This document shows, piece after piece, positions 7,622 to 64,000 of a stretch of 64,000 nucleotides of DNA. Both the position numbers and the translations under genes were made by a program. Origin of the DNA: Eledone cirrhosa (lineage: Eukaryota); NCBI GenBank assembly GCA_964016885.1, contig OZ024749.1:3906001-3970000 (forward strand), written 5' to 3'. Each line of letters begins with the position of its first letter. Position 1 is the first letter of the stretch. A model generated the notes under the pieces. That model was not told where the DNA came from. It saw only the letters and a program-made list of their open reading frames with translations, and made no database searches.

Positions 7622-9216
7622 TTGTATGACTGTGTCACAGCTGCTAGTGTGACTGTGTAACATCTGCTAGTATGATTGTGTCACAGCTGATTGTATGACT
7701 GTGTAACAGCTGCTAGTATGACGGTGTCACATCTGCTAGTATGACTGTGTCACAACTGCTAGTATGACTGTTTAACAGCTGCTAGTATGAGTGTGTAACA
7801 TCTGCTAGTATGACTGAGTCACAGCTGTTAGTATGATTGTGTAGCAGCTGCTAGTATGACTGTGTCACAGCAGATGGTATGACTGTCACATCTGCTAGTA
7901 TGACTGTCACAGATGATAGTATGACTATCACAGCTGCTAGTATGAATGTGTCACAGCTGCTAGTATGACTGTGTAACAGATGATAGTATGGCTGTCACAG
8001 TTACTAGTATGACTGTCACAACTGCTAGTGTGACTGTGTAACAGTTGCTAGTATGACTGTGTCACAATTGCTACTATGACTGTGTAAAAGCTGCTAATAC
8101 GACTGCGTCACAACTGCTAGTATGACTGTGTAACAGCTGCTAGCATGACTGCGTAACAGTTGCTATTATGACTGTCACAGTTGCTAGTATGACTGTGTAA
8201 CATCTGCTAGTATGAATGTGTCACATCTGCTAGTATGACAGTTTAACAGCTGCTAGTATGACTGTGTAAAATATGCTAGTATGACTGTTTCACAGCTTCT
8301 AGTATCACTGTGTGACAGGTGCAATTATCACTGTGTCACAGCTGCTAGTATCACTATGTCACAGGTGCAATTATCACTGTGTCACAGCTGCTAGTATCAC
8401 TGTGTCACAGGTGCAATTATCACTGTGTCACAGCTGCTAGTATCACTGTGTCACAGGTGCAATTATCACTGTGTCACAGCTGCTAGTATCACTGTGTCAC
8501 AGCTGCTAGTATGGCTGTGTAACAGCTTATAGTATGCGTGTGTCAAAGCTGCTAGTATGACTGTAGCACAGCTGCTAGTATGACTGTGTCACAGCTGCTA
8601 GTATGGCTGTGTAACAGCTGATAGTATGACTGGGTCACAGCTGGTAGTATGACTGTGTCACAACTGGTAGTATGACTGTGTCACAGCTGATAGTATGACT
8701 GTTTAACAGCTGCTAGTATGACTGTGTCACGGCTGCTAGTATGACTGTGCCACAGCTGGTAGTATGACTGTATCACAGCTGCTAGTATGACTGTGTCACA
8801 GCTGCTAGTATGACTGTGTAACAGCTGCTAGTATGACTGTGTCACAGCTGGTAGTATGACTGTGTAACAGCTGGTAGTATGATTGTGTCACAGCTGCTAG
8901 TATGACTGTGTAACATCTGGTAGTTTGACTGTGTCACCGCTGCTAGGATGATTGTGTAACTGCTGCTAGTATCACTGTGTAACACCTCATAGTATGACTG
9001 TAACATCTGCTAGTATAACTGCGTCACAGCTGCTAGTATGACTGTGTCACAGCTGCTAGTATGACTGTGCCACAGCTGCTAGTATGACTGTGTCACCGCT
9101 GCTATTATGACTGTGTAACATCTGGTAGTATGACTGTGTCACAGCTACTAGGATAACTGCGTAACTGCTGCTAGTATGATTGTGTCACAGCTGCTAGTAT
9201 GACTGTGTCACAGCTG
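7622..9216. repeat. 23-bp tandem satellite (GTATGACTGTGTCACAGCTGCTA)n, about 70 units, with 21-bp deletion variants
   Basis: Direct reading. The unit contains the inverted repeat CTGTG-T-CACAG. Confidence 0.97.
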
Positions 9217-12978: not shown

Positions 12979-13728
12979 TTTATAAAGAGAGCCAAAAGTT
13001 GAGCAATTAATTGAAATGTAATTGTAAAAAAAAGTTTAACAAAATGGGTGTACAGTGACATGATTGAGTGAAATAAACGGCAACATAAAAACAATTCTTG
13101 GGGTAGCTTGAGTTAATTGACGTAAATGATTTCAGGTCAGCCTTGCTGTAGTAGGTATGAGTAAGGGGATAAAGATGGAATAGACGCACCGTATGTCCTT
13201 CAGTAGACTAAACCCTATGCGTAAGATGGCGCTGCCACTACCACGTTGACCTTGTAGTGGACATAGAAATATCATTCCTTGAAGCAACTATTCCCCCTCG
13301 ACGCCTGATAATGAGCAAAAAGTTTAAGTTAATCAAAACGAAGACACTGTTGCCGAGAATGTTGCTGCACGATTTTCAGAGGCCATAGCGAGTCAGACTG
13401 CTAGGTTAGGGGCCATATCAAGTCAAACTGCTAGGCTAAGGGCCAAATTGCAAGTAAGCGATGACATAGAATGCATTTTAAGGCAATCATTTTCGCAATG
13501 GTCATTGTTGTAACATAAAAAGGTGTTATATAATGAACTAAGAAGCAGAAAGAAGAACTCTGCCTGCCCTAACTGGTTATTCCAACCGGTTTCATGTTAA
13601 TAACATGGTAATTGTGACATGCCTAAAATGCTATCCGGTTCTATCCGTTCATGTACGTGTGCTAGTCATGAGTGGCTGGGTGTGTTTATTGTGAGTATGA
13701 AGAACGAAAACCAAACAAACGGCATGAA

Positions 13729-16500
13729 TCAGTTCCTATAGAACGATGTTCTTTGATTTACCCTTGGGAAGAAAGGCAAAGATAGTGTCCCGACTCTGGA
13801 GCATGCAACGTATAATTGGCCATGTGAGAAACATGGCTCTTCCTGGTGAAGATGTGCCAACGAAAGTGTCTGGCCCTGGGGCTTATTGACGGACATTGCA
13901 AAGCACACACGAAGCGGATTTTGTGATCGCCTGAAAGTGAAAGGAATGTCCGCCCCTGATGTAGTCAGGTGGAGCCTGGTTATTAGTGCATCCTCTCCCT
14001 TTCCACACCCAGTGATAATTGTGGCCTCTATCAGGCGCGGAGACATCTTTTACAGATGTTGTGGTGGGGTTTGATTCCCCAAAAGCATCACGGGGGTTCC
14101 CTCTTTCAGCTTTAATATGTGAGGAGCTAGTCCTGGAGGATTCAAGGAGTTAAGAAATTCAGTGCGGTAATTCACTGCCTCCTGCGGATCTGGAACAATA
14201 TCAACGGATTTGATGTTCACCAGGAAGGCACTACAGTCACTGGTCGTTGATACCCCTGAGTTTTCCTGTAGATTGGGGAAAACTCTTGCCTTGAGGTTAG
14301 CCACAGTTGTAACAGTAGTGCAAAGGTGATCGATGAGTATGTCGCCATGTGCATCCATATGAATCCTGCTATCGCCCAGTGCAAGGATGTCCTGAGCAAA
14401 TTTTTCTGAAAAAGGTTCGCCGTGCTGCTGTGCCCGTAGACAGCCGCAAAGTTTTTACATGCTGCCAAAGTGAAGAAGACTTTAGGCAGGCGCGTACCTC
14501 ATCGGCTCCCTTTCCTTTGGGTATGACGGGAAGAGTTTGTCTGAAGTCTCCTGACAGTAGCAGAGTAACACCTCCCATGGGATCTTCACAATCCTTGATA
14601 TCTCGTAAGGTCCTATCAACTGCCTCGAGAGCCCTTTCTGTGCTATTCTGCATTCATCCCACACAATGAAGTCGCACCTCCTCAGCAGTTGTCCTCTATT
14701 AGAGTTTTAGCAATGTTGCATGATGGAGTTTCTGAGGAGTCTAAATTGAGGGGAAGTTTAAAACAGGAGTGTGCTGTCCTGCCACCAGGCAGCAATGTTG
14801 CAGCAATACCAGACGATGCTACTGCTAGCGCGATTTTTTTCTGCTGCCTTAATTTAGCGAGCAGTAGTTTAATAACAAACGTTTTTCCAGTCCCTCCGGG
14901 AGCATCCAGGAAGAAGATGCCCCCTTTCCGAAGAAGTACGGCATAGTATCATGGACGTATTTTGCGAGGGCGACAACGTCATATGACGTTTCTCGGATGA
15001 TGTCAGTGGGGAGTTTATTTGGATCCGATCGTAGGGTTTGCGGCAGGCAATATGTCGGTAAAATATCCCCCCCCCCCCCATGCATATTAATCGGTCTTCT
15101 AAACTAATAAGTGCCGTATTGTAGACATCATCGCAAAAGCCTACGTGAACATTTGGAAGCAGTAGCTGGGCCTGGTATCTGAAGTCCTCAGACATGTCGT
15201 TTCTATATTTTAACCACCAATAATCAGGATCAGGCAAATCGCACGCGTGCAGCATAAGTGCGTATAACTTTCTGAGACAGCCAGCTCTATGTGATACAGC
15301 CGCCTCGTCCACATTTCATCCCATTGAGCGCCGTCCTCAAGTAGGCTGTATTTCAAACATGCTTCCGTGTATGTAGTGCATAATTGGCCATCAACAGTTC
15401 TAAGGCTGAGGAAACTTGTAGGCCCTCTCACCTCATGTAAAAGCAGGCGCAGGTAGAAGCACTCGTGCTGGTTGGGATGAACCATATAAACTCTCCCCAG
15501 GCAAGAGTCAAATCAGATGCCGGGGTGTCCATCAACATGCTGGCCTGCCTTTCTCCGTGTCCATGACTTTTTGTTCCAGGTGTAATAATATGATGGCACA
15601 TGTGGATACAGCAGCATTCGAGCGAATGGTCTTGTTGGCAGAGCCTAAAAAAACGCCGTGAGTGCTGTTTCCTTCGGCTCATCTGCAAGTTGAAAATCAT
15701 TGTTGTTGTTAAAATAAACACGTTGGCCATTCTCGAGGTGAACCGCAAGCTTTTCAATGAACTTTCTGGGGTATCTTTTGGTGCACCCATTGTCCTTCAT
15801 ACATGGGGAGGACAAATTGAAGCCACGCCCACACGGACCATGCACCATGTGTGTCATAACCTGAACGTAGAGTTCCCTATCAGTTGATTGGTCGGGAAAC
15901 TCTGCCGATATAATGCTGTCGATGTCATTAGATGTAATCTTTGTCGTTGACCAAATCAAAATGTGTGCATGTGGCAGACCTTTTTTTTGCCATTCAATTG
16001 TATACATGTCACACTGTGTATGTTCAAATACATGGCCTGTTTTAATAAGGTACATGAGTTTAATTACTCGAAGCCTAAATACTCTTCTTGTGAGACCATG
16101 CCTGTCTTTGGCCTTTTGACCAGGAAAAAGTTCATTCTCGATCTCCGGCCACTTGGGGTTGCAAGTAAAATTAATAAATAAATCCGGCCTGCCATAATGC
16201 CGTACATATGTCATGGCGTCCTGCCTTCTTTCATGCATATATGTGGGGCTCCCGGTGAAAGATGAGGGCAGTATGCACACTTGACCTAGGCTTCCCGGAT
16301 CTGCATCACCGTTGGTTCCATCACGGAGGTGGATGTAACTCACAACGAAGCTGATTTTGATTCAGTCTGATGAAACACAACCTTTCCGACTTCATTTTTG
16401 CACACATGTCAACAGCGAATTGGTTGAAGAGATCTTGTGAACAGGTGAAGGTGATTGAGGGAGGATTCTCGGATCATGAGGCGGAATGTGTAGAAGTCCA
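13729..16500 (-). mobile_element. Helitron RepHel pseudogene fragment (HUH Rep + Pif1 helicase), frameshifted
   Basis: Rep motifs HYGRPDLFINFTCNPKWPEI and YTIEWQKKGLPHAHILIW. Helicase motifs WDEC, GGVTLLLSGDFRQTLPVI, FAMSVNKPQGQTL and CFSHGQLYVACSRV. Split across many short ORFs. Confidence 0.95.
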
Positions 16501-16527: not shown

Positions 16528-16656
16528 TATTTACGATCTGAGTTCAAATCCCGCCGAGGTTGACTTTGCCTTTCATCCTTACGGGGTCGATAAAATAAAG
16601 TACCAGTAATTCACTGGGTAATTGCTGGCCTTGTGCCTAAAGTAGAAACAATTATT
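16528..16656 (+). mobile_element. tRNA-derived SINE, 5'-truncated
   Basis: B-box GAGTTCAAATCCC, core GCCTTTCATCCTTACGGGGTCGATAAAATAAAGTACCAG, tail GAAACAATTATT. Matches other copies in the window. Confidence 0.9.
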
Positions 16657-17640
16657 GATTAGTAATAGTGTGTACCCTCTTTCGAGTAGAATTTCCTTTA
16701 ATTCTTGAAGTCTTTTATTTCGGGTTTCATAATTGGAGACAGTTGTGCAAATTCTTCTTGGTAGGTTAAAAGAAATATTCGTCTTCGTGTGCTTTGGATG
16801 GTTTGAGGTGAATACCAGGTATTGTTTGGAATCTGTTGGTTTGTAGTGTATGTCAGTTTCAATATTTGTGTCCTTTTTTAAGATTAAGATATACAGAAAT
16901 GGAAGTTGATCTTGGCTGTATTCCATTGTGAATTGGATGTGGTTATTGATGCCGTTTATTAAGTTTTTGAACTCATTCAGCTGGTCTAGTGTGTGGGACC
17001 AAAGAATGAGACAATCATCCAAGTAGCGTTTCCAATTCTCTGATAAATATTTGTGGAAGTTCAATCCGTATTTTGATTGGACTGTTCATATATCTGGACT
17101 TCTAAGTATGCCATGACTAAGTTGGCATAAGTTGGAGCGGCTTTTGTACCCATCGCAGTCGGCGATATTTGCTTGTAAGTACTGCCATCGAAATAAAAAA
17201 AAGTTGTTCTGTGAGATGAATTTTAATCCTTCGGTGATGAAGCTTTTTTCTATTCTGTCTGGTATCTCATTGGGATATTTCTCTAGCCAGAATCCTATTG
17301 TTTCTAGTCCGTATTGGTGTGGGATCGTTGTATAGATATTCACTACATCGAAAGACACAATAATAGTGTCGTTGTTGACATGTTTGGGGAGGTGGCTTAA
17401 GAGTCCAGATCGTCTCTTACAAGGTTTGGTATGTGTTTGAGAATTGGTTTTAGTACATTGTCTATAAAGTTGCTCAGTCTGTGTGTTTCACGTTGTGGGC
17501 CCGCTACAATTGGTCTTAATTTAAGGTCTGTGGGGTATTGTGTGTTCACGCAGGCTGAGGTGGATTGTTTACAGGCATCGTTGATTATTTTACACTTGTG
17601 GATCTTCGGAAGTCACTAAAGGTTGCTGGTTTTGTATACA
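16657..17640 (-). mobile_element. Penelope-like element reverse transcriptase fragment (pseudogene)
   Basis: RPIVAGP, SFDVVNIYTTIPH, WKRYLDDC, IQFTMEYSQDQLPFL, IHYKPTDSKQYL..SNHPKHTK: PLE RT core and thumb motifs, frameshifted. Confidence 0.92.
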
Positions 17641-17829
17641 AAATGTGTTAAATAAACCTTAACAGCCGTTTGCACACACAATACAATAGAACAGATACGA
17701 ATAAGTAAGGAAAATATGTTCATTCAAAAATATTCCTACTAAATGAATGATTTTCCTACACACACACACACACAGACACAGACACACACACACACACAAT
17801 ATACATATATATTCTCCTCATCTTAACAT

Positions 17830-19065
17830 GCTAACCATACTCCCACACACATAACACCCATACACACACATAACAACCCCCACACCCAGACACACAAAAC
17901 CCCTCTCCCATTTCTACTAATAGAATCACTTTCCTACACACACAAAATATATATTCTCTCCATCTTAACATACTCCCACACACACACACACACACACAGC
18001 TCCCTCCCCCTTTTCTACTAATAGAATCATCTTCCAATACACACACGCACACACACACATACACACAAGCACACAAATAAACATACTTATCTTTACTTTC
18101 TTTATTCAATAGAAAATCTGAATTCTGACACCCCAGCGAACTAACCATATTCACTGAACCAGAACAATTCTCCCATCCCATTTCTCTTGACCATTATCTT
18201 TTGCTTGTCATAAAATTCTCTAAATAGGCTACAGACTATATTTCCAAATAAGGGCGCGAACATTTAATGGAAACTTGTTCACGTGACAGCAATAATTTCA
18301 TTTATAACCAATCAAATTACGTTTATAAAAAAAAAGCCTTCGTGAGCCCCCGTTTTTAAGTAAAAGGACATTCAAACACACACACACAACACACACGCAC
18401 ACACACACACACACAAGCACACAAATAAACATACTTATCTTTACTTTCTTTATTCAATAGAAAATCTGAATTTTGACACCCCAGCGAACTAACCATATTC
18501 ACTGAACCAGAACAATTCTCCCATCCTATTTCTCTTGACCATTATCTTTTGCTTGTCATAACATTCTCTAAATAGGCTACAGAATAGATTTCCAAATGAG
18601 GGCACGAAAATTTAATGAAAACTTGTTCACGTGACAGCCATAATTTAATTTATAACCAATCATATTGCGTTTATTAAAAAAAAGCCTTCGTGAGCCCCTT
18701 TTTTAAGTAAAAAGAAATTCAAACACCCACACACAACACACACACACACAACCTCACAAATAAACATACATATCTTTACTTCTTTATTCAATAGAAAATC
18801 TGAATTCTGACACCCCAGCGAACTAACCATATTCACTGAACCAGAACAATTATCCCATCCCATTTCTCTTGACCATTATCTTTTACTTATCATAAACATC
18901 TCTAAAAAGGCTACAGAATGGATTTCCAAATAAGGGCGCGAAAATTTAATGAAAACTTGTTCACGTGACGGCCATAATTTCATTTATAACCAATCAAATT
19001 ACGTTTATTAAAAAAAAGACTTTGTGAGCCCCTTTTTTTAAATAAAAAGAAATTCAAACACTCAT
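17830..19065 (+). repeat. About 340-350-bp tandem repeat (3 units plus partials) in a PLE-like 3' region
   Basis: ACAAATAAACATAC..CTTTACTTTCTTTATTCAATAGAAAATCTGAATT recurs near 18072, 18421 and 18756. Confidence 0.92.
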
Positions 19066-19575: not shown

Positions 19576-19669
19576 AACTACCCCACCTGTCTACTGAGAT
19601 CAACCGCTCTGCATAATCAGCTCCTGATTATTTACTAGATTTCTATAAGAATATAACATCATTGATCTC

Positions 19670-20016
19670 AAATAAAAATAACAACACAAGAGAGAGTTAC
19701 CTTGGGAGAGATGTAATGGTCCCTATATATTTCGGATTCACATCCATCAACTGGGGTTTTTTTCCGGGGTGGGGGAAAAGTTTGTCTGTCGGACAAGTGC
19801 GGAACGCGTGCTTCGCTGTTTGTTGTTTTGAATATCGTGAATATTGTTTTGATATTCAAAACAACAAACAGCGAAGGACGCGTTCCGCATTTGTCCGACA
19901 GACAACCTTTTCCCCCGCCCCGGAAAAAACCCCAGTTGATGGATGTGAATCCGAAATATATAGGGACTATTAAATCTCTCCCAAGGTAACTCTCTCTTGT
20001 GTTGTTATTTTTATTT
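19670..20016. repeat. Fold-back palindrome (~166-bp arms, 14-nt loop) with a degenerate HHR in each arm (19930-19965 +, 19721-19756 -)
   Basis: Arms are reverse complements with a few mismatches. Motif CCC-cagttga-tGGATgtgaATCC-GAAA-TATA-TA-GGG. Confidence 0.9.
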
Positions 20017-24502: not shown

Positions 24503-24560
24503 AATGATAGTCAGCAGATCACTGATGATGGATAGTCCGCTTTCTCGGTCTATTTTCATT

Positions 24561-24624
<64 letters not shown>

Positions 24625-24632
<8 letters not shown>

Positions 24633-25023
24633 TAAGAGGAATTCCAACTTTGTCTGATTTACTCGTTTTATTTACAATCCTTTAAAATATATATAATATG
24701 GTATTATAATGAAATAGTATGATAGAATATTAAATTCTAAGTGTTAATTGAACAAGTACTTTCATGCTTTCGCAATCTTCAGGTCCATGATATGTGGTGA
24801 CAGTCGAGTTTGCAATTTTCCACAGTTGAAAATTGCAAACTCGACTGTCACCACATATCATGGACCTGAAGATTGCGAAAGCATGAAAGTATTTGTTCAA
24901 TTAACACTTAGAATTTAATATTCTATCATACTATTTCATTATAATACCATATTATATATATTTTAAAGGATTGTAAATAAAACGAGTAAATCAGACAAAG
25001 TTGGAATTCCTCTTATTAATATA
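24625..25023. repeat. Near-perfect fold-back palindrome (~196-bp arms, 7-nt loop CACAGTT)
   Basis: 24625-24820 is the reverse complement of 24828-25023. One mismatch seen (GTACTT vs GTATTT). Confidence 0.97.
24861..24899 (+). ncRNA. Minimal type I hammerhead ribozyme (mirror copy on the - strand at 24749-24787)
   Basis: TGGAC-CTGAAGA-tTGCgaaaGCAt-GAAA-GTA(C/T)-TT^GTTCA. Confidence 0.85.
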
Positions 25024-25071
25024 ATCTTCTATACACAATCATACACACCCGTGTATATTTACCTATCTATA

Positions 25072-25124
<53 letters not shown>

Positions 25125-26430: not shown

Positions 26431-27103
26431 GCTTAAGCAATTAATAATTATAGAAAGAAGGTTATTGATTACAACCTGTGTAGGATATGCTCCCAAGAAC
26501 TATTTGAAATCATGAAATCTAATGATATCCTATTAAATAAGCGACAGGAATTAATTATATCATGCAATCATAGAATTAGAAAAAGCTTCAAATATTATAA
26601 ATTTAATTAATATATACCTCACTCTTATGTTTTACAAATTATTATAATTATTTCAAAAACATGTTAAATTTAGTTAACCTATAATTAAATACTTACTACA
26701 AAGAACTTCATAACTTTATTTCCCTCTTGCAGCTCACTTTACCTAAAGCTATCTTTAACCTCACTACTTCTTTTAACCGCATCCCCTATCTATCACATTT
26801 AATACCTAGGAGAGTAAATATAATTAATATCTTTAATATTATGGGTGTTTAAATAGATACACTACTTTTTATAAAATGTTATCTATTTCAGTCTTTCTAT
26901 ATATATATATATATATAATTAATACAATAACAGAGATAGTTTAAAGCTAAACTCTGACTGGTAACCATCTCACTCAACAAACATTAGGTTATATTAAAAT
27001 ATAAACCCAATTTAAGTGTTTGGGGTGCTAACAATATGTATAATGTGGAAAAACCAGTTGTATTATTTTATGAGATATAATTAAAGTTAAAGTATATCTC
27101 TCT

Positions 27104-27229
27104 TTCCAAACAATTGTTTCATTATAAGTTTTCTACAAGTTTGGGAGAATGTTTCCAGTTTATGTAGAAGCCTAATATATATTCATGTAAGAATATATTT
27201 AGGTGGGTACTTATAAATCATCAGTGGAA
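27104..27229 (-). ncRNA. Type I hammerhead ribozyme with 97-nt branched stem II
   Basis: Minus strand: TTCCA-CTGATGA-tTTATAAGT...ACTTATAAt-GAAAC-AATT-GTT^TGGAA. Confidence 0.88.
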
Positions 27230-28112
27230 GCCCATTAAACATTGATATAAGAAAACAATTTCTTACCGCTGTCAAAAAACATGTACGTAAAGTTAGTCTC
27301 TCCCACCTCGAATGACCGCTAAATTTGAAATTCCAGCAGTTTTTGACTGAGGAAGTATCATAGCGACACGAAGCGGGAAGGGGAGACAACCCACGAAATG
27401 AGGAAAAAAATAATAATATACACGCGGGTTAATTATTTTTTTTGAAAACATTATCAATCCAACGTGTTTAAGAACTCAATTGAAAATAAAAAAATAAATA
27501 TATGCTTGTATAAATTACACACGCATATAGGTATTTTCTTAGGCTAAATCAGAAGTTGTACCCGAATAAGAACCGCTTCTCATAACCGCAGTAAATGCAG
27601 AAAGTTATGCTATAAAGGGCAAATGGGAATATAATTCTCCGGCCGAATTATTAAGAGTAAAATATAAAACACACGCGGGTTAATTAGTTATTTCAAAACC
27701 AATATTAATTCCTCGTGTAAAGAACTCAATTAATAAAATAAAATAAATACATATATGCATGTAATTATATACGTAGGCATATATATATATATATATTTTC
27801 CTAGGCTAAAAATCAGAGAAGTTACAACCAAAAAAAGCCACAATATTTCACAACAGTAATAAATACGGAAAGTCAAATTCATAAGGTACCTGGAAATAAA
27901 CCCCTCTGGCCATTCAAGAGAAAATATTTAATACAATAACAGAGATAGTTTAAAGCTAAACTCTGACTGGTAACCATCTCACTCAACAAACATTAGGTTA
28001 TATTAAAATATAAACCCAATTTAAGTGTTTGGGGTGCTAACAATATGTATAATGTGGAAAAACCAGTTGTATTATTTTATGAGATATAATTAAAGTTAAA
28101 GTATATCTCTCT

Positions 28113-28238
28113 TTCCAAACAATTGTTTCATTATAAGTTTTCTAGAAGTTTAGGAGAATGTTTCCAGTTTATGTAGAAGCCTAATATATATTCTTGTAAG
28201 AATATATTTAGGTGGGCACTTATAAATCATCAGTGGAA
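28113..28238 (-). ncRNA. Type I hammerhead ribozyme, second copy in the direct repeat
   Basis: Same motif as 27104-27229, offset by 1009 bp. Confidence 0.88.
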
Positions 28239-28699
28239 AATATATATATATTTTTATTTATTTATTTTACTTCTTTATTTATCACATCCATAATAATTAA
28301 TATATTTTTAACTCTGTAAGTATACCTAACAATTAATTAAATTTCTCTTTATGTATCTAGGTTCCTTAAAATTTAAACTGAGTAGTATTTCTCACTAACA
28401 CTGCATAAAATTATTTACCCTATGCTTTTAACAACATTCTTTAATAACATCAATTTTTTTTTTGGGGGGTGGGGGGGATCTTTTACTATCTCATTAACTT
28501 GACCTCATTTTAACCCCTACCTTTCTCTTCCCCATTCTTTTCATTCAAAGCATAAATTTACATTCCTCCACTCCTAGCATAAAATTTCAACTCCGGTTAT
28601 TCTATCAACTTGACCTTTAACTTTTCTATTGGTCAATTCACAACCTGTTCCCTAACAGACTTTTTGTATTAATACTTTGCTTCTTTCAATAAACATACT

Positions 28700-28842
28700 T
28701 CATCATTTCTGAAGATGGCATATATAAGTGTAGGTATGTATATCTCCTCTGATAATTTGTAATATTTTTTTACATAGATCTTTAATATGATATACATACC
28801 AACTTACACATATATATCCCAGAAACGATCGTAAAATGATGA
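28700..28842 (+). ncRNA. Type I hammerhead ribozyme with 106-nt stem II
   Basis: TCATCATTT-CTGAAGA-TGG..GGTATGTATATC...GATATACATACC..CCA-GAAAC-GATC-GTA^AAATGATGA, with a 9-bp stem I. Confidence 0.9.
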
Positions 28843-28924
28843 TTTTTTTAATATAAGAAACCTGTTCTTTGTTTTTATTTTATTGTATAGGAAGCTCATG
28901 CCAAATTAGTTTTATTTTAAGTAA

Positions 28925-33299: not shown

Positions 33300-36200
33300 G
33301 TGGTGGCGGTTCTGATAGTGTTTGTGGTGATGTCGGCGGTGGTGTTGTTGACGGTGGTGATGTTGGTGGTGGTGGTGTTGGCGGTGGGATGTTGGTGGTG
33401 GTGGTGTTGGCGGTGGGGATGTTGGTGGTGGTGATGTTGGTGGTGGTGGTGTTGGCGGTGGGGATGTTGGTGGTGGTGATGTTGGTGGTGGTGATGTTGG
33501 TGGTGGTGATGTTGGTGGTGGTGGTGTTGGTGGTGGTGATGTTGGTGGTGGTGATGTTGGTGGTGGTGATGTTGGTGGTGGTGATGTTGGTGGTGGTGGT
33601 GTTGGTGGTGGTGGTGTTGGTGGTGGTGATGTTGGTGGTGGTGGTGTTGGTGGTGGTGATGTTGGTGGTGGTGATGTTGGTGGTGGTGATGTTGGTGGTG
33701 GTGATGTTGGTGGTGGTGGTGTTGGTGGTGGTGGTGTTGATGGTGGTGGTGTTGGTGGTGGTGATGTTGGTGGTGGTGATGTTGGTGGTGGTGGTGTTGG
33801 TGGTGGTGATGTTGGTGGTGGTGATGTTGGTGGTGGTGATGTTGGTGGTGGTGATGTTGGTGGTGGTGGTGTTGGTGGTGGTGGTGTTGGTGGTGGTGGT
33901 GTTGGTTGTGGTGGTGTTGGTGGTAGTGGTGTTGGTAGTGGTGATGTTGGTGGTGGTAGTGTTGGTGGGGGTGGTATTGGTGGTGGTGATGTTGGTGGTG
34001 GTGGTGTTGGTGGTGGTGGTGGTGGTGATGTTGGTGGTGGTGATGTTCGTGGTGGTGGTGTTGGTGGTGGTGGTTTTGGTGGTGGTGATGTTGGTGGTGG
34101 TGGTGTTGGTGGTGGTGATGTTGGTGGTGGTGATGTTGGTGGTGGTGGTGTTGGTGGTGGTGATGTTGGTGGTGGTGGTGATGTTGGTGGTGATGTTGGT
34201 GGTGGTGGTGGTGTTGGTGGTGGTGGTGTTGGTGGTGGTGATGTTGGTGGTGATGTTGGTGGTGGTGGTGATGTTGGTGGTGATGTTGGTGGTGGTGGTG
34301 TTGGTGGTGGTGATGTTGGCGGTGGTGATGTTGGTGGTGGTGGTGTTGGTGGTGGTGGTGTTGGTGGTGGTGATGTTGGCGGTGGTGATGTTGGTGGTGG
34401 TGGTGATGGTGGTGGTGATGCTGGTGGTGGTGGTGTTGGTGGTGGTGATGTTGGCGGTGGTGATGTTGGTGGTGGTGGTGTTGGTGGTGGTGATGTTGGT
34501 AGTGGTGATGTTGGTGGTGGTGGTGTTGGTGGTGGTGGTGTTGGCGGTGGTGATGTTGGTGGTGGTGGTGTTGTCGGTGGTGATGTTGGTGGTGGTGGTG
34601 TTGGTGGTGGTGTTGTTGGTGGTGGTGGTGTTGGTGGTGGTGATGTTTGTGGTGGTGGTGTTGGTGGTGGTGGTGTTGGTGGTGGTGGTGTTGGTGGTGG
34701 TGGTGTTGGTGGTGGTGATGTTGGAGGTGGTGGTGTTGGTGGTGGTGGTGTTGGTGGTGGTGGTGTTGGTGGTGGTGGTGTTGTCGGTGGTGATGTTGGT
34801 GGTGGTGGTGTTGGTGGTGGTGTTGTTGGTGGTGGTGTTGGTGGTGGTGATGTTTGTGGTGGTGGTGTTGGTGGTGGTGGTGTTGGTGGTGGTGGTGTTG
34901 GTGGTGGTGATGTTGGAGGTGGTGGTGTTGGTGGTGGTGGTGTTGGTGGTGGTGGTGTTGGTGGTGGTGGTGTTGGTGGTGGTGGTGTTGGTGGTGGTGA
35001 TGTTGGTGGTGGTGGTGTTGGTGGTGGTGGTGTTGGTGGTGGTGGTGTTGGTGGTGGGGATGTTGGTGGTGGTGGTGTTGGTGGAGGTGGTGTTGGTGGT
35101 GGTGGTGTTGGTCGTGGTGGTGTTGGTGGTGGTGATGTTGGTGGTGGTGGTGTTGATGGTGGGGATGTTGGTGGTGGTGGTGTTGGTGGTGGTGGCGTTG
35201 GTGATGGTGGTGTTGGTGGTGGTGATGTTGGAGGTGGTGGTGTTGATGGTGGGGATGTTGGTGGTGGTGGTGTTGGTGGTGGTGGTGTTGGTGGTGGTGA
35301 CGTTGGTGGTGGTGATGTTGGTGGTGGTGGTGTTGGTGGTGGTGGTGTTGGTGGTGGTGATGTTGGCGGTGGTGATGTTGGTGGTGGTGATGTTGGTGGT
35401 GGTGGTGTTGGTGGTGGTGATGTTGGCGGTGGTGATGTTGGTGGTGGTGATGTTGGTGGTGGGGATGTTGGTGGTGGTGATGTTGGTAGTGGTGATGTTG
35501 GCGGTGGTGATGTTGGTGGTGGTGGTGTTGGTGGTGGTGATGTTTACGGTGGTGATGTTGGTGGTGGTGATGTTGGTGGTGGTGGTGTTGGTGGTGGTGG
35601 TGTTTGTGGTGGTGATATTGGTGGTGGTGGTGTTGGTGGTGGTGATGTTTGTGGTGGTGATGTTGGTGGTGGTGATGTTGGCGGTGGTGATGTTGGTGGT
35701 GGTGTTGTTGGTGGTGGTGATGTTGCCGGTGGTGATGTTGGTGGTGGTGATGTTGGTGGTGGTGATGTTGGTGGTGGTGGTGTTGGTGGTGGTGACGTTG
35801 GTGGTGGTGATGTTGGTAGTGGTAATGTTGGCGGTGGTGATGTTGGTGGTGGTGGTGTTGGTGGTGGTGATGTTGGTGGTGGTGATGTTGGTGGTGGTGG
35901 TGTTGGTGGTGGTGATGTTTGTCGTGGTGATGTTGGTGGTGGTGATGTTGGTGGTGGTGATGTTCGCGGTGGTGATGTTGGTGGTGGTGACGTTCGTGGT
36001 GGTGATGTTGGTAGTGGTGATGTTGGCGGTGGTGATGTTGGTGGTGGTGGTGTTGGTGGTGGTGATGTTGGCGGTGGTGATGTTGGTGGTGGTGACGTTG
36101 GTGGTGGGGATGTTGGTAGTGGTGATGTTGGCGGTGGTGATGTTGGTGGTGGTGGTGTTGGTGGTGGTGATGTTGGCGGTGGTGATGTTGGTGGTGGTGA

Positions 36201-36478
36201 TGTTGGTGGTGGTGGTGTTGGTGGTGGTGGTGTTTGTGGTGGTGATGTTGGTGGTGGTGGTGTTGGTGGTGGTGATGTTTGTGGTGGTGATGTTGGTGAT
36301 GGTGATGTTGGTGGTGGTGGTGGTGTTGGTGGTGGTGATGTTGGTGGTGTTGATGTTGGTGGTGGTGATGTTGGTGGTGGTGATGTTGGTGGTGGTGATG
36401 TTGGTGGTGGTGATGTTTGTGGTGGTGATGTTGGTGGTGGTGATGTTGGCGTTGTTTTTGTTTGTGATGATGATGTTG
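33300..36478. repeat. 15-bp minisatellite (GTTGGTGGTGGTG[A/G]T)n, about 210 units
   Basis: Direct reading. It produces the QHHHH, NITTT and MLVVV ORFs. Confidence 0.97.
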
Positions 36479-36479
36479 G

Positions 36480-45819: not shown

Positions 45820-45874
45820 ACTGCTATATATATTTCAGCGACAGCCATCTTTGGCTGTGACCTCTTCAGGCAGT
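45820..45874 (-). ncRNA. Type I hammerhead ribozyme
   Basis: Minus strand: ACTGC-CTGAAGA-ggtcACAGCCAaagaTGGCTGTcgct-GAAA-TATATA-TA^GCAGT, ~50 nt from a (TA)n tract. Confidence 0.9.
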
Positions 45875-47994: not shown

Positions 47995-48310
47995 AGATCA
48001 AAAGATGGTTAAAGGAGTTCCATATATTTTATTATGCGCATTTCAAAAACAAACATCATCAAGCAATAATATTTGTGTTTTCATCAGATAAAACAGGAGA
48101 ACATGATATGAAGGCTAAAAAACACTTGTTGATAGTGCAGTTTTAAATCAACATAACTGCACTATCAACAAGTGTTTTTTAGCCTTCATATCATGTTCTC
48201 CTGTTTTATCTGATGAAAACACAAATATTATTGCTTGATGATGTTTGTTTTTGAAATGCGCATAATAAAATATATGGAACTCCTTTAACCATCTTTTGAT
48301 CTTATATTAT
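47987..48310. repeat. Perfect fold-back palindrome (~156-bp arms, 12-nt loop) plus an 86-bp tail to 48396
   Basis: 47987-48142 is the reverse complement of 48155-48310. Flanked by (TA)n. Confidence 0.97.
48204..48270 (+). ncRNA. Type I hammerhead ribozyme (mirror copy on the - strand at 48027-48093)
   Basis: TTTTAT-CTGATGA-AAACacAAATATTATT gctt GATGATGTTTGTTTtt-GAAA-TGCGCA-TA^ATAAAA. Confidence 0.9.
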
Positions 48311-52607: not shown

Positions 52608-53463
52608 TTTTTTCCGTTGTGTTGTAATATAAATATTACACACAGTAGATTATCAGCTCACGTAGAGTTTGCTCGACGGTTCCAGTTGTAGTTCCAAAAG
52701 TAATCCGGAGAAAAATAGAAAGATTTGAATGGATACAGTTTAGTTGAAAGGAATTTATTGACACGTGTTTCTATAACAGTTACATAACCTAAAACAGCTA
52801 TCTACAAACTTTTAGTTATGCAGACATTCAATATTTCAATGTTATTGTTTACTGTCATTTCATCAGAATAATATTACTGAGGACCTATTTAGTTTTTATA
52901 GAGAATATTAGGAGGAAGGGGTGAAGTTGTTAGAAGAATAGTTGAAGGAGTGGTTTTTCGATAGCAGTGAGAATTCTTGGTGGCAGTGATTAATTAGATT
53001 CCCATCTGTTGTTTTGACATTTTTTATAGAATATATTATTGGTTATTTTTCTAAATCTATAGAAGGATTAGAGATAGTAAAGATATGCGTGGTTGGTTTT
53101 GTGTTTGCACTTAACATTCGGACTTAAATTTTTCTTTCAAGTGTACGTATTCTTTCACCCACGCATTCACACACAAATATATTTGCACACCTCTACAAAA
53201 TACATATACTCACAATTCACATATTCATACTTACATATATATACACATGCATACACATATATATACACACATGTATTCATGTACATACATACGCGCTCAT
53301 GTGTATACATTTTCATACTCAACTTATCTTTATATATACACACGTATAGACACACACATATATACATACATACTCTAGTCCATGTGTACACACATACACA
53401 TACATACACATCCATATACACATACATACATACACATATATATATATACATATATACATATAC

Positions 53464-55422: not shown

Positions 55423-55539
55423 TTATTCTGATGAAATGACAGTAAACAATAACATTGAAATATTGAATGTCTGCATAACTAAAAGTTTGTAGATAGCTGT
55501 TTTAGGTTATGTAACTGTTATAGAAACACGTGTCAATAA
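55423..55539 (+). ncRNA. Type I hammerhead ribozyme with 88-nt branched stem II (mirror copy on the - strand at 52755-52871)
   Basis: TTATT-CTGATGA-aATGACAGT...ACTGTTATa-GAAAC-ACGT-GTC^AATAA. Confidence 0.88.
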
Positions 55540-59263: not shown

Positions 59264-62200
59264 AAGAAGAAGTCCTTGAGGCTTTCTACACTGCCATGTA
59301 CTACCCATCAAATACATCGAATACAGAGCAAACATATATCAACTGGAAAAAGAAACATCCCGAAAACAGAGGCTATATTGACAGTAACAAACTAGCCAAT
59401 ATACGAAGAAATATTGTAAGAAAAAAGTTACTAACTGATATAGAAATTGATTAGATCAAGCTAGTAGCACAAAGTCAGCGAAGGGAAAATGAAGCATCTG
59501 TCAGTGAAAACGAGGTAAACTGTAACACTTCGAATCCCAGAGTTGGGGCGGAATCACTGGCAACAGAACAAATTAAAGAAAGGAGCGAAAAAGTGGAGGG
59601 AGTGCATGCTCAGGATGAAACTCCAAATGAAAATAATGAGATCGTAAATGATAAAGAAATGAATGATTAACTTGCCAACTTGAAGGATGAAATTATGATC
59701 GAATGGATGAAAATGAAAGAATCTGACATGGGGGAACGAGACACCCTCCCTAAGATCCAGAACTCCAAACAGAACCAAAAGATAATACACAAGACTAACA
59801 TAATTCTCAAAAACATTATCATCACAAACAAACTAAGCATTACTGACTTAAATCATCTCTATTATGCATCGGCTAAAGTCACCACTCACTTATGTGGAGT
59901 GAAGATGAAAAAACAAAGGAATTCCCACAAGAAATCTACTTGGCAAGATAACATCAATCGCCAAATAAACCTTCTCCGATCTGACATAGAAATTTTAACA
60001 AACTATAAAGTAGGTGAACATGTTAAACAAACTAAACTTAGAAAATTGAAAAAAAAGTACAGTATAAGATCAACATGTGACATAGACATGCTGATAGAAA
60101 CAATCAAGCAAAAAGTGTCGGCCAAAGCTGCTCGTATAAGGCGCTTTGAAAAACGATCTAGATTCTATAAGGACAATAATATGTTCAAAAACAACCAAAG
60201 AAACTTCTACAGAAAAATTGGTAAGTCAACAATAACTGCTAAATCAATACCACCCAAGGAGGAAGTGCAAGAATTCTGGGAAAAGATCTGGGCCGAAGAA
60301 AAAGTTCATAACATACATGCCCCATGGATAGACAGGCAAATGAAAGAAACAGCTCACCTTGAAGAACAAACATGGGAAAATATAACAGTTGAACAGCTGC
60401 GCTTGGCTCTAAGAAAAACCAGCAAATGGAAATCCCCAGGAAAAGACAAAATACAAAACTTTTGGATAAATGCCTTCACAGAGTCTCATGAGCTGTTAGC
60501 CCAACTTTACAATGAAATAGTTAAGGAGCCAGAAAAGATACCATCATGGCTAGTTAACGGCATTACATTCCTGCTACCGAAGAATGATGAGACAAACAAT
60601 CCCAAAAATTACAGACCGATAACCTGCTTGACCACAATGTATAAAATTTTAACATCAGTCCTAACTCAATACACATATGACCACCTGATAACAAATGACC
60701 TATTTCCCATTGAGCAGAAAGGGTGTAAACGAGGCTCATATGGCTGTAAGTATCAGCTTCTGGTTAACAAAATGATACTGGAAGATTGTCATAATAGACA
60801 CAAAAATCTATCGATTGCTTGGATAGATTATAAAAAAGCATTTGATAGTTTGCCACACAGTTGGATTGAAAAATGTTTAGAGATTTTCAAAATATCCCCC
60901 GTTATCAGGAGGTTTTTGTCATTCAGTATGAGGACATGGAGAACGACACTCCTTTTGAATAGTGAAACAAAATTACTGGAAGCTGGAGAAGTTAACATTA
61001 ATTGTGGAATTTTTCAGGGTGACTCTTTATCACCGCTTTTATTCTGCATCGCACTTATACCATTAAGTAAAATGCTCAATGAAACAAAACATGGATATAG
61101 AGTCGATGACAAAACCATTAATCACCTGTTCTACATGGATGACCTGAAACTATTTGCAAAAAATGATGAACAATTGCAAGGGCTATTATCCACTGTAAAG
61201 CAGTTCAGTGATGACATTAAAATGGAGTTTGGACTGGATAAATGCGCCAAAGCAACGTTCACCAGAGGAAAGCTGCTGAAGAGTTCAGACATTAATCTTG
61301 ATCGGGGGAACGTGATAAGAGAGCTTGATCAAGAACAAACTTACAAATATCTAGGTGTTTGTGAAGGAGACGGAATCAAGCACTCGACAATGAGGGAAAG
61401 GATAAGGAAGGAATGTTACCGCAGAGTCAGAGCAATCTTAAGAACGGAATTGAATGCAAGGAATAGGATCGATGCCATAAACACACTTGCCATACCAGTA
61501 GTAACCTACAGTTACAATATCATCAACTGGTCAAGCACAGAGATCCGTAGGCTCGATACAAAAATCCGAAAATTCTTAACCATGCACAGAATGCATCACC
61601 CTAAGGCAGACATAGATAGAATATATCTCCCTAGGAAAGAAGGAGGACGTGGGTTAATCCAGTTAGACATTGCGTTGAAAACTGCAACAATTGGATTATC
61701 CACATATCTAAGGGAATCACATGATTGGATGATCAAACTCGTTTTGAAACACGAAAGCACCAAAAGATCATATTCCATTACAAAAGATGCACAAAGATAC
61801 AGTAATGGACTACAAATTTCAGAAGTCCCATTTACTGCTGAAATGGAAAACACAGAAAAAGCAAAGCAGGTAAAAGTAACTGCAAAGAAAGAACTGCTAC
61901 AGAAACTGGCTAAGAAATGGCAAGAAAAGCCTCTGTATGGAAAATACCCAGAGCGAGCTAACAATCCTGATGTTGACAAAACTTTAACCCATCAGTGGTT
62001 GGCATCCTCTGGACTGAAATCGGAGACTGAAGGACTGATTATATCCGCACAAGATCAGTGTCTGCCAACAAAAAATTACCAAGCCAACATAATAAAAAAT
62101 GGGTGCAGCCCATTATGCCGTGTATGCAAAAAACAACCAGAGACCATTGACCATATAATTTGAATGTGCAGTCCTATAGCTCCAACCGAATACCTAAACA

Positions 62201-62848
62201 GGCATGACAGAGCTGCACAATACATACATTGGATAATGTGTAAGCATTTTGACCTGCCCCATCAAAAGAATTGGTGGGAGCATCAACCACCTCCCATACT
62301 TGAAAAAGATCACATCTCAATCTTGTGGAACTTTAGCATCCAAACAGACCGAAAAATAGATGCAAATAGACCTGATATAATATTGAAGGACTTTCAAAGG
62401 AGGGTATGCCTGCTAATTGATATGTCTGTTCCAATAGACAAGAATGTATCTATAAAAACATTTGAAAAATTGAGCAAGTATAAGGACCTGGAGATAGAAA
62501 TTGGAAAAATGTGGAAATTGAGAACTAAAACAATACCAGTGGTTGTAGGCGCTCTGGGAATGATACCTAAGGGGTCTAACGACTACTTATCGCAAATCCC
62601 AGGAAACCCGCGTATAGGAGAAATACAAAAGATAGTACTAATGGGAACTGCCCATATACTAAGGAAGATCATGTCAATATAAGTACATCACAAGTCTAAA
62701 CACTAAGGATGCATGTGTGAATATGTGTGTTCTTTCTTGAACATGGCGGACCTTGTTGTCTCTTGAGGTCACTGGTTGTGACTTGGTGATAACTCGTATA
62801 AACATAAAGCAAGATAAATGCAAATAATAATAATAATAATAATAATAA
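59264..62848 (+). mobile_element. R4/Dong-clade non-LTR retrotransposon (RT + CCHC knuckle + restriction-like endonuclease), 5'-truncated, in (TAA)n
   Basis: One frame from 59269 to 62682 with three in-frame stops (59452, 59668, 62161). Motifs KNYRPITCL, WIDYKKAFDS, GIFQGDSLSPLLF, YMDDLKL, CRVC..ETIDHII*MC, RHD, NRPDII..LIDMSVP..KYKDL. (TAA)n on both sides, the known Dong target. Confidence 0.96.
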
Positions 62849-64000
62849 AAACTGAATGGGCCACTACAAATCATAGACACTAAAAATAAACTGGAAATAA
62901 AGTACAAAACTAGGAGGAAAAAGCTAAATAGTATCATAGAGGAACTGAAGCAACGCATTGTAGCAAAAAGCGCAAAGATTAGGCGATAGGAGAGCAGAGT
63001 CAGTCAGTATAGACAGAACCGCATGTTTGACAACAACCAGAAGATACTGTTTGGACAGACTGAAGGGAAAGAAAGAGGCAACGACTTGATCCCTGAGGCG
63101 GAAAAAACTAGGATATTCTGGAGAGGAATACGGGAGCAGGATGTTGAACATAATAACCAGGCAGTGTGGTTTGAGACAGTACAAAAGGAGATAGTGAACA
63201 GGTACACCAACAAACTGATTTGAGTATCACAGTTGAAATTCTTACTGGGAAGGCCAGAAAACTAACCAACTGGAAATCACTAGGCCCAGATGATGTGCAG
63301 GGGTATTGGATAAAAAATACAACATCCCTCCACCCGAAACTGACAACCATGTTCAATGACTGCTTGATGCCAGGTGAGGTACCAGAGTGGTACACAAAAG
63401 GTACCACATTTCTGGTAATGAAAGACCGAAACAAGGGTAATGATGTTACCATCTATAGACCTGTCACATGCCTGTCCATAATGTGGAAACTGTTAACAAG
63501 CATTGTGTCTGAGGAAATCTACCATCACCTACACATAAACAACTTGTTAACGGACGAACAAAAAGGATGCCGAAGGAAGTCCCGTGGTACAAAGGACCAG
63601 TTACTTATTGATAAGATGGTAATGGGGAATTGCAGGAGGAGACACACTGGTCTTGCCGTGAGATGGATAGACTACAACAAGTCATTCGACATGGTACCTC
63701 ATTCTTGGATAACCAAAAGCCTAGAGATCTTCAGGGTGGCAGATAACATCAGACAGTTGGTGAGCAACAGTATGAAGTCCTGGAAAACATAGGGCGGAGA
63801 ATCTTTGGGAGGCGTGAGGATCAAGAGAGGTATCTTCCAGCGAGATAGTTTGTCCCCTATGTTGTTTGTCCTTGCCCTGATCCCCCTGACCATTATACTG
63901 CAAAACGTGAAAGCAGGATACAAGTTGGGAAAGGGAGTGCTTGCCATCAATATGTTCCTCTTCATGGACGATCTTGAGCTCTTCGGGAAGAGTGAGAAGG
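62849..64000 (+). mobile_element. Second, older R4/Dong-like LINE fragment, running off the window end
   Basis: YRPVTCLSIMWKLLTS, EQKGCRRKSRGTKDQLLIDK, WIDYNKSFDMVPHSW, GIFQRDSLSPMLF, FMDDL. Frameshifts and stops. It starts right after the (TAA)n tail of the first element. Confidence 0.93.

Follow-up and report, generated by a model that had tools for sequence, protein, structure and literature searches.

A hammerhead retrozyme family of Eledone cirrhosa with units joined to a Penelope-like element at predicted ribozyme cut sites

In a 64,000-nt stretch of the Eledone cirrhosa genome (the window; contig OZ024749.1), a noncoding element bounded by two hammerhead-bearing repeats is probably a 5′-truncated, 1.3-unit insertion of a repeat of ∼1005 nt with >2000 relatives, its ribozyme-cut RNA copied into (TA)n by the RT and nuclease of a Penelope-like element (PLE). 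Taken by itself, the window copy is an ordinary representative of a kind already known. What its family adds is three chimeric loci, above all L325, in which whole retrozyme units are joined to an autonomous PLE at the predicted cut sites of both elements, an arrangement for which we found no prior description in the literature searched.

Results

Structure of the Window Copy

The element lies on the minus strand and consists of a 5′ repeat (28238–27924), a noncoding interior of 694 nt (27230–27923), and a 3′ repeat (27229–26915). The direct repeats are 315 nt long and 98.4% identical, with five mismatches and a spacing of 1009 nt. Each carries a type I hammerhead, at 28113–28238 and 27104–27229 (both minus), with a 5-bp stem I, CUGAUGA at 28233 and 27224, GAAA at 28129 and 27120, a stem II of 8 bp enclosing a long branched insert, and a palindromic stem III. 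Cleavage is predicted after H17 at 28118 (triplet GUU) and 27109, delimiting a cut-to-cut monomer of 1009 nt (27109–28117, minus) with a GC content of 30.5%, that is, below 45%. The interior holds two units with approximate ends, 27650–27923 and 27398–27660 (minus), that are 77% identical over 254 columns; single-unit monomers of ∼700–750 nt occur in older subfamilies. The longest stop-to-stop frame is 81 aa and the longest ATG frame 52 aa. The original prediction from this sequence had described nearly identical ∼310-bp repeats each with a minus-strand hammerhead, these cut positions and this monomer, no coding capacity, and two diverged interior units of ∼250 bp, and all of these descriptions agree with our measurements. 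No Pol III A or B box, exact octamer, or AATAAA (motifs taken from general knowledge) was found in the retrozyme unit, and no tRNA head was found on the retrozyme. Folded as a circle, the unit lies 5.5 SD below 20 shuffles; stems I and II form in that fold with probabilities of only ∼0.13 and 0.3, the active fold being a minority.

The retrozyme sits antisense in a short TA tract within the 3′ untranslated region (UTR) of a plus-strand PLE remnant, family C. The left part of this host (26478–26914, plus) comprises the end of a GIY-YIG ORF, with a stop near 26610, and the start of the 3′ UTR; the right part (28239–28900, plus) is the remaining 3′ UTR with its own long-stem-II hammerhead at 28709–28833. 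Both insertion flanks match in 13 of 14 other family C copies, and the junctions examined show an empty short TA site, in accordance with the predicted (TA)n location inside the 3′ UTR of another hammerhead-bearing PLE. The TA tract is longer in the filled site than in the empty one, and a TSD, including one of 4 bp, cannot be delimited there. Family C encodes a terminal GIY-YIG ORF, and its CxCX5C linker agrees with the definition of the Hydra clade given by Craig et al. 2021 (10.1101/2021.04.23.441226); we call the host Hydra-type on this ground, clade names for this family and for family B (below) being motif-based.

A Multicopy Family with a Fixed 3′ End and Variable 5′ Ends

In the 3.0-Gb genome, the interior gave 40 scored matches at 95–100% identity out of 2271 candidates, the exact ribozyme junction occurred 2275 times, and the exact 3′ end followed by TA occurred 801 times; controls for the two exact searches gave 0. 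We sampled the first 100 of the 801 3′ ends, all on contig C1, and dropped two neighbor duplicates, leaving 98 copies. Their lengths range between 45 nt and about 3 kb and decay without a visible ceiling up to about three units, the 5′ end varying and the 3′ end being fixed. Ribozyme cores numbered none in 28 copies, one in 61, two in 7, and three in 2, so that 9/98 copies have at least two. A TA run borders the 5′ flank of 75/98. All sampled copies that exceed one unit in length run on into a further unit, and tandem arrays of units are present at L258 and L236. Among 36 distinct unit spacings, 26 fall at 980–1019 nt and 8 at 700–759 nt; the 1-kb unit likely arose by internal duplication, to judge from the short units, which have one internal unit. 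Older subfamilies at 74–81% identity keep noncoding units of 700–1010 nt. Inverted copies are also seen at L012 and L046, and the chimera L327 has an inverted 5′ copy with the partner's tail; in PLEs such inverted 5′ copies have a tail of 30–40 bp.

Only 1 of the 98 sampled copies has the 5′ end of the window copy. The original prediction had named dispersed copies with the same boundaries as a check and had noted that the 5′ boundary coincides with the first base of stem I: the family is indeed multicopy with a fixed 3′ end (at ∼26915–26919 in the window, followed by (TA)n, and the putative RT priming site), and the position on stem I is correct, but the start is no element boundary. Because it is common to a single copy in the sample, the 5′ end is a chance truncation point. 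With lengths and 5′ ends varying, multimers occurring, and one start in common with the window copy, the direct repeats are PLE-type pseudo-LTRs produced by 5′ truncation of a 1.3-mer of the ∼1005-nt unit, the 5′ repeat being the overlap of the tandem copy and its left end the truncation point. Four of the five differences between the repeats precede the cut; we considered a second-template origin of the 5′ ribozyme and rejected it, those variants being private or rare.

None of the 100 sampled copies reached an RT ORF by continuing 5′. PLE ORFs lie near 21/100 5′ flanks, 13 in sense and 8 in antisense orientation, at least 249 nt away and mostly behind TA tracts. An autonomous PLE with the 3′ end of the retrozyme was not found; families B and C were compared and have no 3′-end similarity to it. 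Neither a single-copy local duplication nor a truncated autonomous PLE continuing into an RT ORF, the two outcomes that the original prediction had named as fatal to it, is what the sampled copies show: the retrozyme call stands for a noncoding, multicopy, hammerhead-bearing family in which the predicted cuts define a unit of ∼1 kb. The window element is an animal non-LTR retrozyme or, in other terms, a nonautonomous PLE.

Two further observations concern neighboring hammerhead repeats and junctions. Family D (L023:800–930 minus; L275–L294) is an abundant (TA)n-inserted hammerhead repeat with a 79-nt stem II; it has the stem III palindrome in common with the retrozyme family and nothing else, and no ORF was attached to it in 20 loci. 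At L259:2522–4620, an old retrozyme copy directly borders a 597-aa Hydra-type ORF, which is inverted and meets the copy with its 5′ end, no TA tract lying between them; this one case is ambiguous, and the junction is possibly a template switch.

5′ Ends Accumulate at the Predicted Cut

Directly 3′ of the predicted cut (121/122), unit positions 122–140 contain 17/98 5′ ends where 2.2 are expected (P about 2e-10), an interval picked after the initial 30 loci had been inspected, a few of them also present in the sample. Stops there account for 12/88 first passes and 5/16 second passes, the cut junction being crossed in the other 76/88 and 11/16. Per pass, the stop rate is 16% at the cut-adjacent site, 0–5% at other short TA motifs, and 18% (7/39) at the long internal TA tract. 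Position 133, with TA microhomology at its start, is the commonest stop. Because the long internal TA tract stops 18% of passes, microhomology explains part of the pile-up. A search for a nonfamily base before the cut gave 38 pattern matches, and 16 of the 30 examined start at positions 120–122 straight after foreign DNA.

Conservation of the Ribozyme

The cleavage triplet GUU and the U-U first pair of stem II are weak points of the window hammerheads, and an Rfam search returned nothing at gathering score. Across 68–75 copies, the 14 core positions differ at 2 of 1007 bases, compared with a rate of rare differences of ∼0.76% elsewhere (P 0.018), N7 taking four states. In an alignment of 12 of 14 cluster representatives, drawn from 137 distinct ribozymes, plus the two window copies, five stem pairs change on both sides, a number reached in 4/500 shuffles that do not control for relatedness. 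With older subfamilies included, stem III takes three different sequences, all of them self-complementary, and C, A, or U occupies H17. On these comparisons the retrozyme ribozyme is under selection. A palindromic stem III has been described as a dimer design in PLE hammerheads. Minimal hammerheads of PLEs are described as weak in vitro (PMC4209133), and eight of nine Xenopus retrozymes did not cut (bioRxiv 10.64898/2026.07.22.740005).

In the most diverged subfamilies (L202:1081–1205, L341:1394–1517, and L362:1893–2018), the triplet is GUC or GUA and the first pair of stem II mostly G-C; young abundant subfamilies such as that of window 28113–28238 have GUU and U-U, and families B and D likewise have U-U. 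Speculatively, the most amplified retrozyme forms may possibly have drifted to weaker cutting.

Chimeras Join Retrozyme Units to a Neptune-Type PLE

A search for a non-T base after H17 gave 17 matches, four of which, at three loci, enter the same foreign sequence. At L325, L326, and L327 this sequence is what the predicted cut of family B would leave on its 3′ side. Family B is an autonomous PLE with about 2958 junctions in the genome and copies that are 99% alike; its ORF of 775 aa scores above the Pfam cut-off for GIY-YIG and just below it for RT, and from its linker motif we infer that it is Neptune-type. Each locus holds one exact cut-to-cut retrozyme unit, the three being 1003, 995, and 1003 nt long. 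Because these monomers are only 92–97% alike, the three loci are separate events; they lie on two large contigs and contain monomers of different subfamilies. The 5′ sides of the units differ. L326 has (TA)n there, and in L327 the sequence turns back on itself at precisely the cut. At L325 (G000:C2:377.42 Mb) the 1003-nt unit continues 5′ into the 5′ cut product of family B itself, in a near full-length B copy at 96%; both junctions are exact, so the retrozyme unit stands inside the cut site of B with no base gained or lost. The same chimeric junction is present a second time in the inverted 5′ copies at L327 and L325. Between the retrozyme family (A) and family B, only TT is common at the joints, and no other similarity was found. 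With 3 loci against 2275 normal junctions, chimeras make up about 0.1% of junctions.

Among 60 loci examined, 7 places also show family B turning back at the cut of its own ribozyme. In the window, an inverted 3′-end fragment of family B with its tail occupies 24551–25097, with a hammerhead at 24782–24754 (minus) and a predicted cut after 24754. Many family B copies turn ∼75 nt 5′ of the ribozyme cut, a hot spot of inversion and truncation.

No further ribozyme partner appeared among 30 of 39 matches of one search and 30 of 194 of another, whose list includes L325, and no new chimera partner among 60 of 267 loci examined; 30 of 304 matches of another search were all older subfamilies. Two smaller partner searches gave 2 matches, with a pattern of unsuitable length, and 6 matches, one of them the 5′ joint of L325. 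In four public contig sets searched with the L325 junctions, the pieces listed contained normal A-A and B-B joints and none bridged the chimeric joint. Junctions of retrozymes with PLEs at ribozyme cuts were not found described in the titles and abstracts searched, mostly outside subscription journals.

The exactness of these joints points to cleavage in vivo, followed by RNA ligation or end-to-end template jumps. Taken as genomic joints, they show that the predicted cut junction is at least sometimes truly broken and then rejoined or jumped, and by the same token family B has demonstrably carried three retrozyme units. The chimeras thus likely record ribozyme cutting in living cells, the cut RNAs having been rejoined and copied into DNA.

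Other Features of the Window

Hammerhead candidates of other families lie at 48033–48264, 45825–45869, 52760–52866, 55428–55534, and ∼55990, some as inverted pairs. An 830-aa RT ORF (Pfam RVT_1) at 59671–62682 (plus) ends in one stop followed by a 172-aa frame that resembles a restriction-like endonuclease region, and the whole would be an R2/R4-type non-LTR element; a second, broken copy of it starts near 62850. The degraded remains of a PLE RT (about 45% identity to family B) are found at 16582–17700 (minus), next to frames at 13700–16500 (minus) that by eye resemble a Helitron Rep/helicase remnant. Large tandem arrays occupy 33324–36479 (15-nt unit ×211), 7624–9216 (23-nt unit ×70), and 18039–19061 (348-nt unit ×3), and a long, perfect-looking inverted repeat lies at 19668–19970 with its center near 19830.

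Discussion

The pattern of copies suggests a route from RNA to insertion. Copies with two ribozymes, such as the window copy (9/98), would give rise to transcripts, probably as read-through products, that are cut to unit length by ribozymes that may act as dimers, as the palindromic stem III suggests. In the DNA, copying ends at an invariant point ∼190 nt beyond the cut on its 3′ side, plausibly where RT is primed at nicked (TA)n. After ∼190 nt, RT would reach the cut 5′ end of the RNA, where it may either stop, in keeping with the pile-up seen, or cross the rejoined junction; because ordinary copies end ∼190 nt 3′ of the cut, RT must cross that junction to copy more. Crossing would nearly always stay within one molecule, as it would on a circle, and yield partial tandems and multimers. 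Rarely, as seen in the DNA of the retrozyme–Neptune chimeras, the junction is crossed into the cut end of another element, presumably by RNA ligation or an end-to-end RT jump.

Linkage is undiminished across the cut, tandem units have minor alleles in common by 26 to 1, and divergence is 1.4% within tandems against 2.9–6.1% between loci. Junction crossing is therefore mostly on one molecule, which may be a circle, a transcript left uncut, or an RNA on which RT jumps to the molecule's own end. We also considered frequent joining in trans between members of the family and rejected it, since linkage does not fall across the cut. L325 is most simply read as one turn of a Neptune-plus-retrozyme circle; two end-to-end RT jumps would yield the same DNA, and we hold the choice to be near even. 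The broader proposal, that PLEs and retrozymes transpose via religated ribozyme-cut RNAs and that L325 is a copy of a circle of Neptune (∼4.2 kb) and a 1003-nt retrozyme, is offered as tentative, with slightly less than an even chance of being right. If it is true, retrozymes ride by RNA ligation, and ribozyme cut sites are points of RNA-level recombination between unrelated elements. Our best explanation matches the model put forward in PMC4209133 and PMC7229834, the latter also treating retrozyme circularization, and the end types left by hammerheads are those joined by RtcB (PMC6789731). In the oldest retrozyme subfamily, stem III and the long stem II are in common with Hydra-type family C; the likeness may bear on the source of RT as a hint only.

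The closest competitor holds that RT copies mainly linear read-through transcripts of tandem sources that have not been cut, that cutting is occasional and no circle is required, and that the chimeras are RT jumps between linear cut ends. It overlaps with our explanation and differs only in the third step, the crossing of the junction. The weak-looking core (GUU, U-U) and the intact linkage across the junction speak for it, same-molecule crossing fits uncut transcripts as well as circles, and the 5′-end pile-up together with the fold-backs at cuts in L327 and family B shows linear cut RNA as template. It accounts poorly for copy lengths without a visible ceiling up to about three units, and for the full turn at L325 it needs two exact jumps or one two-part circle; we regard it as less likely than not. 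That the chimeras might be assembly errors or products of DNA-level recombination, silent on RNA cleavage, is improbable. In its favor, there are only three of them, and the TT at the end of both cut sites offers 2 nt of microhomology; against it stand their distribution over two large contigs with monomers of different subfamilies, the recurrence of the junction in the inverted copies of two loci, the want of homology between families A and B beyond TT, and the four exact ends without duplication that L325 would need.

Two readings of the copies themselves fare worse. If they were 5′-truncated 3′ UTRs of an autonomous PLE, their truncation pattern and target would be explained, as would the stem III that the oldest subfamily has in common with the Hydra-type host, and upstream sequence was followed for 100 of the 801 young 3′ ends, all on one contig. 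Yet all sampled copies beyond one unit run into another unit, the ORFs near their 5′ flanks stand in both orientations at a distance and mostly behind TA tracts, and subfamilies down to 74% identity keep noncoding units, so this reading is quite unlikely. Least probable of all, to the point of being negligible, is a plant-type (TRIM-like) LTR retrozyme with true LTRs mobilized by an LTR retrotransposon, the likeness that the original prediction had favored. Two repeats of ∼310 nt around a 694-nt noncoding middle do match the sizes given in PMC4918200. The ribozyme is type I rather than type III, no TGG follows the 5′ repeat as a PBS, the longest purine run before the 3′ repeat is 6 nt, GC is 30.5%, multimers occur, and the target is (TA)n; because 5′ ends vary and PBS, PPT, and TG...CA ends are lacking, we reject the plant LTR reading, which the absence of a fixed 5′ boundary in 97/98 copies refutes. 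Among the readings weighed, we retain copying of ribozyme-cut retrozyme RNA by PLE machinery.

Comparison with Known Systems

Plant LTR retrozymes, as characterized in PMC4918200, resemble the window copy in overall size and in two ribozyme-bearing repeats around a noncoding middle. They have type III hammerheads, PBS, PPT, fixed LTR ends, a 4-bp TSD, and GC above 55%, whereas the window family has type I hammerheads, GC of 30%, no fixed LTR ends, and no 4-bp TSD seen. PLEs, as described in 10.1101/2021.04.23.441226 and PMC4209133, have in common with the window family 5′ truncation, pseudo-LTRs from partial tandems, inverted 5′ copies, (TA)n targeting, the minimal hammerhead, and palindromic stem III, and the nonautonomous Chlamys element MRC1 discussed there was likewise first mistaken for an LTR element. 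In contrast to the autonomous families B and C, the window family has no ORF and no detectable 3′-end similarity to them.

The nearest relatives are the metazoan non-LTR retrozymes (PMC7229834; bioRxiv 10.64898/2026.07.22.740005), which have one type I hammerhead per noncoding unit, partial to multimeric tandems, low GC, and a proposed mobilization by PLEs. Their reported consensus lengths of 51–972 bp, and units of 150 to >1000 nt, put the window unit at the top of the range. The window family differs from them in its minimal-type ribozyme with a branched stem II of ∼97 nt and in consisting mostly of dispersed, 5′-truncated single insertions. The PLE link is drawn in those sources from shared motifs, co-occurrence, and trees, whereas in the window family entire units stand physically attached to a PLE, with the joints at both cut sites. 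PLE mobilization of animal retrozymes having so far been inferred, exact units at the cut ends of Neptune would document in the genome itself both the cutting of the two ribozymes in the germ line and the copying of an entire retrozyme unit by Neptune RT.

Chimeras of U6 with LINE-1 formed by RtcB ligation, as reported in PMC6789731, likewise join a cyclic-phosphate 3′ end to a 5′-OH end and are then retrotransposed. In the present family both partners would be ribozyme products, and at L325 two joints enclose a whole unit; the chimeras thereby name a young pair of elements suited to testing ligation against template jumping.
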